Positions 3,577 to 10,990 of a stretch of DNA of 10,990 bases are shown here, one piece after another; the stretch's first letter is position 1, and every line of letters begins with the position of its first letter. The translations under genes were made by a program, and so were the position numbers. The stretch lies in IMG/VR virus record IMGVR_UViG_2617270964_000005, one strand, 5' to 3'. Under the pieces are notes generated by a model. That model had not been told where the DNA came from. It ran no database searches and was given only the letters and a program-made list of their open reading frames with translations. This stretch comes from a virus. Lineage: Duplodnaviria; Heunggongvirae; Uroviricota; Caudoviricetes.

Positions 3577-5082
3577 TCATGGCATGGCCATGAGCATTTT
3601 CACGTCCGCATCACCGTCTGCTGACGTCTGTGACACGCCACCCCGCACCGCTGCCGGTGAATGATTCGCCATGAAATGTTCAAACAGGGCGGTTGTGGAT
3701 GCAGAGACCGGTTCGGCCTTACCTGATCCCGCAGCCAGCACAGCCCGGGCGTTCTCCACGGTCATTCCCGGGCAGGCCGCCAGTTTTTCAGCCTGCGCTT
3801 CTGCCCCTTTTGCCTCATCCAGGGCCATGATCTGATCACGAAGTGAGGGCCCGGCATCCGCCAGTGGTGCAGCCGCCAGGATCGGGCGGGCTTTTTCCAC
3901 CGTCATCTCCGGCATCGCCGCCAGCGTTGCCGCCAGTTGTTCACGACCGTTCGCTTCTTCACACGCCATAATGCGATCGGCTTCACTCTGCGCGGATGCC
4001 ACCGGCTGCTGCGGTGCCGCCGCGGCCAGAATCGCCCGGGCCTGTTCAACGCTCATGCCCTGTTGCCCTGCCAGCATCGTGGCAAGCTGTTCACGTCCTT
4101 TCGCTTCCTGGCATGTCAGGATCCCCATCACTCGCTGGTTCTCCTGCACGGCGGCTTCCGTTGCAGTTAATTGCGGCATAGTGCCTCCTCTGACATTACT
4201 GTTCAGCGCCGTGGCCATCACACTGATGGCATCCGACGCATTGATTAATTCATCCGCCAGCCCGGCCTCAATGCCGGACTGACCTTCAAAAACGGCGGCC
4301 TCTGTTCCCGTGACTGCATCAACAGACAGACCGGTAAACATCGCCACTTTTTCGGCAAACATCCGGCGCGCCGCATCAATCCGCTGCTGCATGTCCTGGC
4401 GAACCTCTGCCGGCAACGCTTCAAACTGATTGCCATCCACCTTGTGCGCCCCTGAGTAAATCAGCGTGATATCCACACCGGCCTGCGCCAGATGACCGGC
4501 ATAGCTGACATGGCTCATCATCACGCCAATGGAGCCGATACGGGATGTCTGGGTAACCAGCCGTCGGGAGCAGGCAGACGCCAGCAGCATGGCTGCAGAA
4601 CAGGCCGTGTCATTGCACAGTGCCCAGACCGGCTTCTGCTGACGGAGGCGGTAAATCATGTCAGCGCAGTCAAACGCGCCGGCGGCCTGCCCGCCCGGAC
4701 TGTCAATGTCCAGCAGTACGCCCCGCACCTGGCTATCCGCCATTGCCTGCTGAAGACAGGCGACAATGCCGTCATAGCCTGTCATTCCGGAAAATGGCCG
4801 CATACCACCCAGCCGGTGCACCAGCGTGCCGGTCACCGGCAGTACAGCAATACCGTTCACCACCCGGTAAACACGGGCCGGTCGTTTACCTCCGGCCATA
4901 TACTCGTCCGTTTCAGCCAGCATTCCGGGAGCATCAAGCTGTACCTGCTGTTGTGGTACCGAAAGACTTGCTGCCCCCATCTCGCGCCCGAGCGCGCAAA
5001 AGAAAACCCGCGCATAGGCGGGCTCCAGAAGCAGCGGTTCATTGAATGCTGCGGCAATAATGTGTGAAAGATTACGTCTCAC
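3577..5082 (-). CDS. C: Head maturation protease / scaffold, lambda gpC homolog (S49/ClpP-like peptidase domain with a Nu3-like scaffold C-terminal region); 501 aa, GTG start
   Basis: N-terminal two thirds align with lambda C as recalled (AFNEPLLLEPAYARVFFCAL..., VNGIAVLPVTGTLV, GMTGYDGI, DSPGG, AGAFDCADMI, KPVWAL, RRLVTQTSRIGSIGVMM, ITLIYSGAHKVDGN). Longer than lambda C (439 aa) because of a repeated C-terminal motif. Start codon is GTG at 5080..5082 and overlaps the end of B. Confidence 0.88.
   Translation of the reverse strand: MRRNLSHIIAAAFNEPLLLEPAYARVFFCALGREMGAASLSVPQQQVQLDAPGMLAETDEYMAGGKRPARVYRVVNGIAVLPVTGTLVHRLGGMRPFSGMTGYDGIVACLQQAMADSQVRGVLLDIDSPGGQAAGAFDCADMIYRLRQQKPVWALCNDTACSAAMLLASACSRRLVTQTSRIGSIGVMMSHVSYAGHLAQAGVDITLIYSGAHKVDGNQFEALPAEVRQDMQQRIDAARRMFAEKVAMFTGLSVDAVTGTEAAVFEGQSGIEAGLADELINASDAISVMATALNSNVRGGTMPQLTATEAAVQENQRVMGILTCQEAKGREQLATMLAGQQGMSVEQARAILAAAAPQQPVASAQSEADRIMACEEANGREQLAATLAAMPEMTVEKARPILAAAPLADAGPSLRDQIMALDEAKGAEAQAEKLAACPGMTVENARAVLAAGSGKAEPVSASTTALFEHFMANHSPAAVRGGVSQTSADGDADVKMLMAMP
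3727..4134 (-). repeat. Three diverged tandem copies of an approximately 40-47-aa motif inside the gpC/Nu3-like scaffold region
   Basis: Protein-level repeats RVMGILTCQEAKGREQLATMLAGQQGMSVEQARAILAAAAP, RIMACEEANGREQLAATLAAMPEMTVEKARPILAAAP and QIMALDEAKGAEAQAEKLAACPGMTVENARAVLAAG. The underlying DNA copies are diverged, not identical. Confidence 0.6.
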
Positions 5083-8779: not shown

Positions 8780-9299
8780 CGATCCACCCGCCCACGTTTT
8801 CACCGGCCTTAGCTGCAACATTGGAGGCTTTCGCGATTTCAGTTTTCACCACATCAAGGTGTGATGGTGAAATGTCCGGATATTTACGCTGTAATGTCAA
8901 CGGCACACGCACAAGTATCCCCGAAATCTCCTGTGCCACACGTTGCAGAATGAAGGTAAACAGTTCAGTTTCCAGCACTACTCCGTCTTCACGGGCATTT
9001 TTCAGTTCCTGCGCATCTGCCTGCGCTTTTGTGAGCCGGTAGCGTTCATAGTCAATGGTGCCGGGTTGTAAATCTGACTCCGCTGCCGCACGCAAATCGT
9101 CCAGTTCTTTGCGGAGCTTTTCGTTTTCGATATCAGTTTCCCTCTGCGCATACCACTGAATTGCCATGGCAGTATCAAATACAGATTCAATGCCCTTACT
9201 ACCTTTGGAGGCGCAAGGGAGTCCCTGAGACTGCCAGCGTTCAATCGTCCGCGGGTCCACGTTGAAAATTTCGGCAAGCCTCTTTTTATTAACCTTCAT
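8751..9299 (-). CDS. nu1: Terminase small subunit, lambda gpNu1 homolog (182 aa)
   Basis: [12 protein letters not shown]...[12 protein letters not shown]...[56 protein letters not shown] aligns with lambda Nu1 as recalled (MEVNKKQLADIF...NWQEQGMP...[55 protein letters not shown]). The C-terminal 35 or so residues diverge. Confidence 0.92.
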
Positions 9300-9475
9300 G
9301 AAAACAACCCATTATCAAATACAAGGCCCGACATGAAAACGCCAGAAAAAGGCATTTTCGGACACTTTCATGTCGGACCTTTACGGATGTAATATTAAAA
9401 AAAACAAAAAGTTATATTCGAGAAGTACCGACACGATTTTCCCTGAAAAATTTTCATAAATAGTGAAAAACCGCG
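9296..9475 (-). promoter_or_regulatory. cosB-like terminase binding region containing three copies of a CATGAAA-type repeat (candidate R sites) and an AT-rich segment
   Basis: Lies between cosN and the nu1 start. CATGAAAAC occurs at 9297..9305 and 9332..9340 as direct repeats, with an inverted imperfect copy (CTTTCATGTCG) at 9365..9375. The first 45 or so bp next to cosN resemble the lambda left end as recalled. Confidence 0.5.
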
Positions 9476-9487
9476 AGGTCGCCGCCC
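9476..9487 (-). other. cosN, the 12-nt cohesive-end site (minus strand reads GGGCGGCGACCT)
   Basis: Plus strand AGGTCGCCGCCC at 9476..9487 is the exact reverse complement of the lambda 12-nt cohesive end. Flanking sequence on both sides resembles lambda as recalled (right end ...GGTCCTTTCCGG(T/C)GATCCG...GTTACG, left end CTCGCGG(G/T)TTTTC(G/A)CTATTTATGAAAATTTT). Confidence 0.85.
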
Positions 9488-9510
9488 CGTAACGGCCCGG
9501 ATCGCCGGAA

Positions 9511-9517
9511 AGGACCT
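9511..9517 (-). other. cosQ-like element (minus strand AGGTCCT versus lambda GGGTCCT as recalled)
   Basis: Position and sequence relative to cosN match the lambda cosQ region as recalled. The exact cosQ boundaries are from memory and uncertain. Confidence 0.4.
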
Positions 9518-9519
9518 GC

Positions 9520-9542
9520 AAAATGATAATGGTTATCATTTT
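9520..9542. repeat. Perfect 10-bp inverted repeat with a 3-bp spacer (AAAATGATAA tgg TTATCATTTT) immediately next to the cosQ-like element
   Basis: Read directly from the sequence. A second inverted repeat (AGTCCGGT at 9549..9556 and ACCGGACT at 9572..9579, 15-bp spacer) lies just beside it. Confidence 0.6.
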
Positions 9543-9739
9543 CAATGTAGTCCGGTTTCTTCCACCATCGCACCGGACTGGCGACTATGAGGGGACAACG
9601 CCGCGCTCCGTTAACGCGGTAAACCCCGGTGTGTATCGTTTTTGATTATCCCCGCACACTCGCGCAGAGGAGTCTCCCTGTCGGGCTGCGGTCTCTGTTA
9701 ATGAGGGAATACAGCGACGATACGGCGCATCAGCAAAAC

Positions 9740-10207
9740 TTAGTTCAGGCACTGAGTGCGGATATAGTCCTGTGCCCCTTCCAGCTGCTTCTGCATTGTC
9801 ATCAACCGTTCTCTGAGGATGAAATAATCCCGTTCAGCGGTGTCTGCCAGTCGGGGGCCGGTTGCATTATCCACGCCGGAGGTGCCGGTGGCTTCACGCA
9901 CGGTACCGGAGCAGGTGGCGTTGATCCGCAGGCGCTTACGACCAGCGGCAACATCAGCACGCAGAGTTTCATTTTCAGCTCTCGCATCGGCTAATTCCCT
10001 CGAGTATCTGGCATCAAGTTCAGCGACATCACGCTGGCGTATCTGCATATCAGTAATTGTCGCGTTCGCCAGTTTCAGCTCACTGACTTTTTTATCGCGC
10101 TGCGCTTTGTAGGTGATGGCGTTATCGCGGTAATGATTCAGCCCCAGACTAAGCACACCACAGGCTACCAGCAGGACAATAATCACCACACACAGAACAC
10201 GGTTCAT
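9740..10207 (-). CDS. Rz: Inner-membrane spanin Rz (155 aa from the ATG at 10207)
   Basis: [95 protein letters not shown]...[22 protein letters not shown] is highly similar to lambda Rz as recalled. The track ORF extends to 10291, but that extension has no similarity to Rz and overlaps a separate small ORF. Confidence 0.92.
9802..9987 (-). CDS. Rz1: Outer-membrane lipoprotein spanin Rz1, embedded in the +1 frame of Rz (61 aa)
   Basis: [61 protein letters not shown] is similar to lambda Rz1 as recalled, with a lipobox (VSAC), a Pro-rich segment and a conserved WIMQP...[11 protein letters not shown]-terminus. ATG at 9985..9987. Confidence 0.88.
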
Positions 10208-10208
10208 A

Positions 10209-10295
10209 TCACCACCAACGGATTGCCCAGACCAGAACAGCAATGGCCACAATACGAATGGCAAATGCCATTGCCCGAATAAGTTCAGCACTCAT
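10209..10295 (-). CDS. Hypothetical 28-aa hydrophobic peptide (small ORF 3); its stop lies 1 nt before the Rz ATG
   Basis: Manual translation from the ATG at 10293..10295 gives [28 protein letters not shown], then TGA at 10209..10211. Not in the ORF track (too short). Core [14 protein letters not shown] resembles RALAFAIKWVAVGIAV in small ORF 2. No obvious Shine-Dalgarno. Confidence 0.3.
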
Positions 10296-10306
10296 CTTTT
10301 TAAAGT

Positions 10307-10429
10307 TCACGATTTCAGCGCAATGACCAGTTTTGCCAGCCCATACAGCATCGGAGACACAGCAATACCAACAGCCACCCACTTAATAGCAAAAGCCAGC
10401 GCTCTGCTGATGTCATCAGTCACTGTCAC
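10307..10429 (-). CDS. Hypothetical ~40-aa hydrophobic peptide (small ORF 2), GTG start assumed
   Basis: In-frame GTG at 10427..10429 (or 10421..10423) gives VTVTDDISRALAFAIKWVAVGIAVSPMLYGLAKLVIALKS, stop TGA at 10307..10309. It is the C-terminal part of the track's 90-aa ORF 10307..10579, whose own start is a TTG and whose N-terminal part overlaps small ORF 1 in another frame. A GGGG run lies about 7 nt upstream of the GTG. Confidence 0.3.
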   Translation of the reverse strand: MTVTDDISRALAFAIKWVAVGIAVSPMLYGLAKLVIALKS

Positions 10430-10557
10430 CCCAGCAGCCCCGACGAAGACAACATCACCCAGGCGAGGGACAGAAAAAGAGCAACCAGCATTAGTGAAAA
10501 TGAAATACCGACAATCACACACAGGACCTTTGCCGGCGTTATGAGTTTGTCTGACAT
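10426..10557 (-). CDS. Hypothetical 43-aa single-pass membrane peptide (small ORF 1) resembling the N-terminal membrane anchor of Rz
   Basis: ATG at 10555..10557 preceded by a strong AAGGGG Shine-Dalgarno with a 5-nt spacer. Product MSDKLITPAKVLCVIVGISFSLMLVALFLSLAWVMLSSSGLLG, stop TGA at 10426..10428. Shares GTCCTGTGTGTG...ATTGTC and GGGGCTG DNA strings, and the peptide motif (K/R)VLCV, with the 5' end of Rz at about 10150..10200. Confidence 0.45.
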   Translation of the reverse strand: MSDKLITPAKVLCVIVGISFSLMLVALFLSLAWVMLSSSGLLG

Positions 10558-10720
10558 AGCTACCCCTTAATTGCCACAATTAACTGGGATACTACCCATA
10601 AAAAAGGGATGCTCCAGACCAGCAAAAATTTCCAGTTTGGTAATTGACTAATCATGAGTCGCAACTCCCTAATCAGTTTGCTAAAATCAATCAAGGCAGC
10701 CTCCCATAGCTTACTGCCAT

Positions 10721-10760
10721 AAAAACAAAACCCCGCTTGCTGCCAACAAACGGGGTTTTT
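10721..10760 (-). terminator. Rho-independent terminator (strongest on the minus-strand transcript; possibly bidirectional) between the endolysin gene and the small ORFs
   Basis: Minus-strand RNA: 9-bp stem CCCCGUUUG / CAAGCGGGG (one G-U pair) with a 7-nt loop, followed by UUUUGUUUUU. On the plus strand the same hairpin has one C-A mismatch and is followed by TTTTTACTTTTATT. Confidence 0.6.
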
Positions 10761-10849
10761 ACTTTTATTCACTTACATTTTGCCAGTTCGCAGGATTTCG
10801 TGTTATCCGTCCGCCTTGGCCAACGTCATTTATTAGCAAAATATTCTGC

Positions 10850-10990
10850 TTATCTGTCGATTCCCCAGCACGCCAGCGCGCTCTCCTGGTCACGACGGGA
10901 TACCTGACCGTAACAGTTATTTGAGCGAATACGGCAGTCCCTGCCACCGTCCTTAATCCACCAGCGAATCGCCTCACACGCTCCCCTGCG
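10850..10990 (-). CDS. 3' end of an endolysin gene (T4-lysozyme-like, phage 21 R / RrrD type); the 5' part lies beyond the window end
   Basis: Open frame running in from the window edge with stop TAA at 10850..10852. It encodes ...RRGACEAIRWWIKDGGRDCRIRSNNCYGQVSRRDQESALACWGIDR, which resembles the C-terminus of phage 21 / DLP12 lysozyme as recalled (...[36 protein letters not shown]). Not in the ORF track because no start codon is in the window. Confidence 0.5.
   Translation of the reverse strand, partial: RRGACEAIRWWIKDGGRDCRIRSNNCYGQVSRRDQESALACWGIDR

Follow-up and report, generated by a model that had tools for sequence, protein, structure and literature searches.

The hairpin on the minus strand at positions 10727-10759 of the window (the whole 10,990-nt stretch of DNA that was analysed) is probably a canonical Rho-independent terminator, which would block RNA polymerase lacking the antiterminator Q and be read through after induction. 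[quoted passage not shown] This is an ordinary, previously undescribed but standard late-operon terminator of the Q-overridden class, and no description of a terminator between R and Rz was found in the literature on Stx or lambdoid phages. The value of the observation lies mainly in annotation, as a very common unannotated terminator of E. coli prophages, and it leaves the understanding of lambdoid late transcription unchanged. The features discussed below, all on the minus strand, are the following:

10850-10990, minus: 3' end of R, which encodes the endolysin (SAR-type lysozyme), truncated at the window edge; the translation ends in ACEAIRWWIKDGGRDCRIRSNNCYGQVSRRDQESALACWGIDR before the stop
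10761-10849, minus: untranslated spacer (R 3' UTR), 89 nt, common to all variants of this R lineage
10727-10759, minus: putative terminator stem-loop, AAAACCCCGUUUGUU-GGC-AGCAAGCGGGGUUUU, 15 pairs including 3 G.U
10717-10726, minus: U-rich tail, GUUUUUAUGG
10700-10705, minus: Shine-Dalgarno GGGAGG, read from the sequence, 5 nt before the TTG of ORF a
10560-10694, minus: ORF a, 44 aa, TTG start at 10694, LIDFSKLIRELRLMISQLPNWKFLLVWSIPFLWVVSQLIVAIKG, predicted single-pass membrane protein; full-length match to phrog_6632, E = 1.4e-13
10426-10557, minus: ORF b, 43 aa, hydrophobic; phrog_4906, E = 4.5e-21; annotated as hypothetical protein WP_001280935.1
10307-10429, minus: ORF c, 40 aa, GTG start; phrog_1115, E = 6.4e-25, profile positions 30-67
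10209-10310, minus: ORF d, 33 aa (GTG start) or 28 aa (ATG at 10295); phrog_4493, E = 4.4e-07
9740-10207, minus: Rz (i-spanin); Pfam Phage_lysis PF03245, E = 7.5e-50
9987-9802, minus: Rz1 (o-spanin lipoprotein), embedded in Rz; lipobox LVVSAC
3185-3164, minus: hairpin after the D-like gene, -17.4 kcal/mol
2099-2079, minus: hairpin after the E-like major capsid gene, GCGGGGGCGAAAUGCCCCCGU + GUCUUUUUUC, -19.8 kcal/mol

Position and Folding of the Hairpin

Read on the minus strand, positions 10759-10727 are AAAACCCCGTTTGTTGGCAGCAAGCGGGGTTTT, which forms 15 pairs (6 G-C and 3 G.U) around a 3-nt loop. Directly 3' of the stem on this late strand follows GUUUUUAU, positions 10726-10717 being GTTTTTATGG; with the paired UUUU of the stem counted, the U-tract is UUUUGUUUUUAU (10730-10719), and in other cassette classes the tail is UUUUGUGUUUC. 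The gap from the endolysin stop codon TAA (10852-10850) to the stem is 89-90 nt, and the hairpin lies in non-coding DNA, downstream of R and co-oriented with it. As a 49-nt piece, the minus-strand RNA folds at -21.1 kcal/mol, compared with -9.9 +/- 2.5 kcal/mol for shuffled sequences (z = -4.46, with 0 of 200 shuffles as good); 91-nt versions were also folded for both strands. Position and fold agree with the preliminary description, which had placed a strong hairpin and a U-tract on the late strand about 90 nt past the endolysin stop. The site thus combines the features by which intrinsic terminators are recognised, namely a stem with a short loop, an adjoining U-tract, a non-coding and co-oriented location and a stem that is kept in relatives.

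In a consensus scan of the whole window, 31 terminator-like sites were found (10.9 +/- 2.6 in shuffles), and the minus-strand site ranks second among them. Terminator prediction had been suggested for both strands; the scan did not flag the plus-strand form. The plus-strand transcript also ends in a U-rich tail (UUUUUACUUUUAUU) and folds at -14.2 kcal/mol (z = -2.99), in line with the earlier remark that folding on this strand is poorer; it is the weaker of the two because A.C mismatches take the place of the three G.U pairs present in the minus-strand RNA.

The A-tract upstream and U-tract downstream of the stem, together with the plus-strand fold and the tail that follows it, also bear on the idea that the hairpin is chiefly bidirectional, stopping antisense plus-strand transcription that would otherwise enter R and S from the side of Rz and the small ORFs. 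Such transcription could start at a plus-strand promoter-like site at 10551-10580 (CTGACA-18-CACAAT, 9/12 matches, TG-extended), about 150 nt upstream of the hairpin. This idea is quite improbable, since the three G.U pairs favour the minus-strand RNA (-21.1 vs. -14.2 kcal/mol) and the scan passes over the plus-strand form. In addition, promoter-like sites are fewer in the window than in shuffles (3 vs. 7.0), and this one sits at the junction of ORFs a and b, so it is possible only in the cassette classes that have that junction. The antisense RNA that this site would yield measures about 185 nt.

Conservation of the Stem and Its Association with the Endolysin Gene

Conservation was measured in 19 haplotypes whose choice took no account of the hairpin; one sublineage with a decayed hairpin (-10.6 kcal/mol) was excluded post hoc. 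In these haplotypes the basal 13 pairs are invariant, with 0 of 26 basal stem positions varying compared with 26 of 89 spacer positions (Fisher p = 0.0009), and variation within the hairpin is found at 3 of the 7 apical positions. Compensatory double changes were absent from the stem in the 19 haplotypes, so the pattern is one of conservation and not of covariation. The sequence comparison indicates that the hairpin is more than a chance structure, and its conservation agrees with a function.

Of 5426 complete E. coli genomes, 1965 contain the 56-nt hairpin region, with up to 7 copies in one genome and 3142 occurrences in total; it is also found in Stx-converting and other phages of Escherichia and Shigella. 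The preliminary description had counted a standard structure of the phage lineage, with no effect on downstream expression, against its reading; these counts bear out the first half of this, for a very large lineage. The longer 841-nt segment from R to Rz is found at a coverage of at least 80% in 589 of the 5426 genomes.

Among 124 sequences with the exact end of R, 81 have the hairpin at the same offset, in 5 of them in the decayed form (-10.6 kcal/mol), while most of the remaining 43 have another, less stable hairpin with an antirepressor-type gene (ant) behind it. The order R-ant-Rz is a known layout of Stx phages. The hairpin of these cassettes reaches -16.2 kcal/mol at best and -5.6 kcal/mol in some variants, and it was not flagged in prophage Sp12 of strain Sakai. 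The idea that every R-distal junction has a terminator was considered and discarded, given how weak or broken the ant-type hairpin is among variants and that it goes unflagged in Sp12. The weaker hairpin of the R-ant-Rz cassettes also counts against necessity, suggesting that a terminator at this place is not indispensable.

The DNA on the two sides of the hairpin differs in constancy. Of 132 loci retrieved by way of the hairpin, all 132 have the end of the R spacer as the 30 nt directly upstream. Past the U-tract, 140 hairpin-found loci have at least four different ORF cassettes, namely a-b-c-d (47), a single a'-type ORF (about 46), c' followed by b' (34) and a single d'-type ORF (13). The constant R spacer upstream and the varied cassettes downstream therefore place the hairpin, as far as sequence comparison can assign it, in the endolysin module as its end and not with the small ORFs, the exchangeable DNA beginning past the U-tract. 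Phage PhiR5_1 has the same small ORFs after an ant-like gene, without this hairpin. The earlier linking of the hairpin to the small ORFs does not hold up against the 132 of 132 loci with the R spacer upstream and the four or more cassettes downstream. The hairpin would accordingly mark a mosaic junction, with R, spacer and hairpin conserved and the DNA from the hairpin to Rz exchangeable. Between the hairpin-type and the ant-type cassettes, homology breaks exactly past the invariant last block of the spacer. The small-ORF modules are shuffled among prophages as a-b-c-d, a' alone, c'+b', d' alone and ant+b.

The Late Operon and Its Predicted Terminators

On its minus strand, the window carries the late operon of a lambda-like prophage, beginning inside R. 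The gene order from Pfam matches is Rz (10207-9740, with Rz1 embedded), Nu1, terminase A, portal B, protease C, D, E, FI, FII and Z, where D is the decoration protein and E the major capsid protein according to the Pfam assignments in the window. A prophage that is 99.9% identical to the window over 3991 nt (L296) has a gene for a Q-family antiterminator 7 kb upstream. On the late strand of this near-identical prophage, terminator-like hairpins were found at 4280, 4611, 6138, 6359, 8947 and 11117, the last corresponding to the studied hairpin, so that five others lie between Q and it. Their contexts are past Q, past a small ORF, past tRNA genes, in the accessory region and before the holin gene. 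The hairpin at 4280, just past Q, is probably tR', and the one just before the holin gene (8947) has a folding energy of -17.0 kcal/mol. The block S-ydfR-R is flanked by hairpins on both sides.

RNA polymerase loaded with Q resists terminators and blocks the formation of terminator hairpins (PMC9388147, PMC7547250). The hairpin after R would thus be one of a series of terminators passable only by the Q-modified polymerase. Because several terminators precede it, the genes downstream should already be Q-dependent, and the hairpin by itself would not make them so. The strong hairpin just upstream of the holin gene weighs against the main reading to this extent, since it could already stop Q-independent transcripts before they reach the studied site.

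The mechanism proposed here follows what is established for intrinsic terminators and for antitermination by Q. On reaching the U-tract, RNA polymerase moving along the late strand without modification would form the G+C-based hairpin, and the transcript would be released near 10725-10719. Without Q, the genes further downstream, namely those for the spanins, the small membrane proteins and the head, would then stay silent. After induction, polymerase coming from the late promoter with Q could not form terminator hairpins and would pass this site like the other terminators of the operon, so that the small ORFs and Rz/Rz1 would then be made as ordinary late genes. The hairpin would act as a polarity barrier to Q-independent transcription and not as a phage-specific regulatory switch. 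The preliminary description had likewise seen a terminator that cuts the small ORFs, Rz/Rz1 and all head genes off from upstream transcription unless antitermination is active, and the late-strand site does have all the sequence features for such a role.

The nearest known systems are the Q-overridden late terminators of lambdoid phages (lambda, 82, 21, and tR' with downstream sites in Stx phages). The studied hairpin resembles them in being a late-strand hairpin with a U-tract, in having a Q-family gene and a tR'-like hairpin in the near-identical prophage, and in that the genes beyond it would be expressed only by Q-modified polymerase. It differs from tR' in being located 7 kb from Q, past the endolysin gene and not beside the late promoter. 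To our knowledge, no short RNA product comparable to 6S RNA or StxS comes from this hairpin. A more distant analogy may be drawn with an insulator terminator of Tn916 that, as far as outlined in PMC11658703, blocks premature expression of element genes from outside transcription and is overcome by antitermination; element, host and antitermination system are unrelated.

Within the window, the hairpins after D (3185-3164) and E (2099-2079) are similar to the studied one in strand, operon, stability (-17.4 and -19.8 vs. -21.1 kcal/mol) and placement in a gap past a stop codon, although they follow highly expressed structural genes in conserved order, whereas the studied hairpin is at the edge of an insertion. 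Both occupy short gaps past the stop codons inside the late operon, with FI, FII and the tail genes lying downstream of them, and both would likewise have to be read through. The strong hairpins directly past these abundant head proteins, and those that flank S-ydfR-R in the near-identical prophage, could point to a main role in tuning or stabilising RNA, either by partial termination despite Q or by protection of the 3' end, which would raise the S-R message relative to the genes downstream. As the main role this is rather unlikely, since the structural genes downstream need high expression and a costly attenuator past R is not obviously useful. It is, however, compatible with the terminator reading and not opposed to it, and the terminator probably also protects the 3' end of the S-R message.

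Other parts of the late region were also inspected. The 440-nt gap between Rz and Nu1 (9300-9739 of the window) has no long ORF and lacks the ynfO-like gene and the HnrS locus of Sakai Sp12 (L204); it presumably holds cos. Weak hairpins accompany a late-strand promoter-like site that directly precedes Nu1 (9339-9311). In relatives (L003, 5230-5502; L296, 10050-10364), an opposite-strand ORF annotated as hypothetical or DUF1823-containing lies between the ydfR-like gene and R, a part of the cassette outside the window. In prophage Sp4 of O157:H7 strain Sakai (L297, NC_002695.2, 1183365-1186375), the block of holin, endolysin, hairpin, small ORF and Rz has the opposite orientation to the remaining late region and adjoins IS629 copies and pchA; this lysis module is therefore disconnected from its own late promoter.

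The 3' UTR of R and a Possible Small RNA

R is annotated as lysozyme or rrrQ in genome copies that are 100% identical, and the R protein of phage 933W has been used as a SAR endolysin (PMC9239132). The ends of the spacer that follows R are nearly invariant (first 15 nt GCAGAATATTTTGCT, last 15 nt AAGTGAATAAAAGTA), with a hypervariable centre of about 25 nt that has no indels. Mean nucleotide diversity of the spacer is 0.103, and in the last 107 nt of R it is 0.018, 0.017 and 0.156 at codon positions 1, 2 and 3; these values come from the gap-free end of the gene, the alignment of the whole of R being gapped. A weak hairpin of 6 pairs is found at the R stop codon, in the first 15 nt of the spacer. 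A conserved structure in the spacer was not convincing in RNAalifold (-8.96 kcal/mol with one compensatory pair).

Two reading frames in this region were tried and rejected. The mini-ORF in the centre of the spacer (ATG ACG TTG ... GGA TAA) has ATA in place of ATG in many variants and has no three-base periodicity, and a 70-aa ORF at 10977-10765, which takes in the last part of R as well as the spacer, is broken at different places among variants.

The near invariance of the 15 nt ahead of the stem (AAGUGAAUAAAAGUA) invites the suggestion that the R 3' UTR and hairpin give rise to a small Hfq-binding RNA, by processing or from a weak TG-extended promoter in the spacer, with a role like that of StxS, HnrS or the anti-sRNAs. 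These 15 nt and the A-tract include five consecutive A-R-N triplets beside a terminator with a U tail, and A-R-N triplets next to such a terminator are the layout of Hfq binding (PMC4104026). In its fullest form, R, the 89-nt 3' UTR and the hairpin would be a selected unit giving a stable, induced and Hfq-bound RNA (about 125 nt if derived from the 3' UTR, or about 50 nt) that acts on host or phage messages; the window variant ATAACA-18-TGgCAAAAT (8/12 matches) would give the RNA of about 50 nt. If true, the riboregulators already known near the lysis genes (StxS, AgvB/AsxR, Pas and HnrS) would be joined by one more multicopy prophage RNA of this kind.

Both the small RNA and the selected unit built on it are, however, highly improbable. 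The -10-like hexamer lacks its final T in most hairpin-bearing variants (CAAAAC, CGAAAC, CAAAAA), and the spacer has no structure supported by covariation. The Rfam scan of 9000-10990 (E <= 1) gave no match at the site and two chance-level matches elsewhere. In Hfq-crosslinking data, no peak is listed at the Sakai copy of the hairpin (NC_002695.2, 1184828-1184856; Table S2 of PMC4104026), a copy that lies in the inverted lysis module of the uninduced prophage Sp4, nor at the R-ant spacer of Sakai Sp12 in the same table. For strain Sakai, Term-seq data are deposited as GSE143631 (cited in PMC7547250).

The known families of prophage small RNAs (AgvB, AsxR, StxS, HnrS/EcOnc10, Pas, STnc100 and Esr41) were considered and rejected, on the grounds of no Rfam match and of different positions. 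AgvB/AsxR and Pas map upstream of the holin gene, and HnrS/EcOnc10 maps downstream of Rz on the opposite strand, beside the ynfO-like gene that the window lacks.

Insertion between R and Rz

R and Rz overlap in relatives from E. ruysiae, E. albertii, Mangrovibacter, Citrobacter and Enterobacter and in the Qin prophage of K-12, in which rrrQ and rzpQ overlap and the hairpin element is absent. Among 75 R homologues of other species, the hairpin was found only at an Escherichia locus, and at least 33 of the 75 have their next long ORF beginning at most 25 nt from the R stop, in most cases with an overlap. The E. ruysiae locus has an R of 92% identity that directly abuts an Rz with 73% identity to that of the window. 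The GC content is 40% in the spacer, 38.5% in ORF a and 46% across ORFs a-d, compared with 59% in R and 54% in Rz. Because R and Rz abut in relatives from other species and the interposed DNA has a lower GC content, the spacer, hairpin and small ORFs are best read as a derived, lower-GC insertion between a cognate R-Rz pair.

The departure from a contiguous R-Rz arrangement that had been pointed out at the outset is borne out by these relatives with overlapping genes. The further suggestion of a recombination remnant of two lysis modules finds no support, the flanking R and Rz being cognate and abutting in E. ruysiae at the identities given above. The gap between R and Rz is thus an insertion site, occupied by an antirepressor-type gene in some prophages and by arrays of tiny membrane proteins, read here as late genes, in others.

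Small ORFs between the Hairpin and Rz

The four ORFs between the hairpin and Rz are all hydrophobic. They have no match in Pfam, and the PHROG families that they match (6632, 4906 and 1115/3246/4493) have no assigned function. ORF a starts 33 nt after the stem, and its N-terminal motif DFSKLIRE(L/I)R is kept in the a' variant; in the other cassette classes, an equivalent AAAGGAG/GGGAG site is found before the first ORF. ORF c looks like a member of a 67-aa family that is shortened at the N terminus; the long form of this family is found in other cassettes, and ORF d is a paralogue of ORF c. The ORFs are closely packed, with 2 nt from the end of ORF a to the ATG of ORF b, GTGA overlaps between the stop of ORF b and the GTG of ORF c and between the stop of ORF c and the GTG of ORF d, and the stop of ORF d (TGA, 10211-10209) located 1 nt ahead of the ATG of Rz.

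A 70-aa ORF that runs across the hairpin (10772-10560) was also considered and rejected, since it is interrupted by a stop codon in the a'-type cassettes. In public records it is annotated as 'TPR_REGION domain-containing protein' (ON470597.1) or as the hypothetical protein WP_001043230.1 (NZ_CM128593.1). This frequently annotated 'hypothetical' or 'TPR_REGION' protein is probably an over-call of the 44-aa ORF a.

A search for a promoter of the small ORFs, which had been called for earlier, gave no late-strand site with at least 9/12 matches in 10540-10990, nor elsewhere from R to Rz, by consensus scan; the best relaxed late-strand match has 8/12, lies upstream of the hairpin and is not conserved. 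The window scan likewise gave no hairpin between the small ORFs and Rz. Because their frames overlap or abut and no late-strand promoter-like site precedes them, ORFs a-d are read here as late genes translationally coupled to Rz and not as a separate transcription unit.

These results bear directly on the proposal of a moron-like unit with the hairpin as its 5' boundary, in which the small ORFs would have their own promoter and be shielded from late transcription. The interposed DNA does behave as expected of such a unit in being an insertion relative to the contiguous relatives, of lower GC content and modularly variable. It is accessory DNA present or absent between homologous neighbours and with a base composition unlike that of its flanks, so the 'inserted' part of the earlier wording stands. 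The 'moron' part does not fit, as neither a promoter of its own (by consensus scan at 9/12 or more) nor a terminator past the accessory genes was found. The 33 nt between hairpin and ORF a have no late-strand promoter-like site and include the Shine-Dalgarno sequence, and ORF d runs up to 1 nt before the start codon of Rz. Moreover, the hairpin co-occurs with the R spacer and not with a particular cassette, and in PhiR5_1 the same ORFs follow an ant-like gene in its absence. Together, these points make a moron boundary very unlikely. The comparison with the morons of HK97 and HK022, as far as they are represented by Juhala et al. 2000 (cited in PMC4104026), leads to the same view: the likeness is a terminator at a junction of conserved late genes and lower-GC accessory DNA. 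In those morons, however, the terminator is past the accessory gene and a promoter is before it, whereas the studied hairpin precedes the accessory ORFs, has no promoter in sight and travels with the upstream R.

If the tiny membrane proteins of this variable array modulate lysis by the SAR endolysin or a pinholin, the tight Q-dependence of their expression would be relevant. Their position beside the SAR-type endolysin invites the suggestion of a role in lysis control, by analogy with the releasin of phage Mu (PMC9239132).
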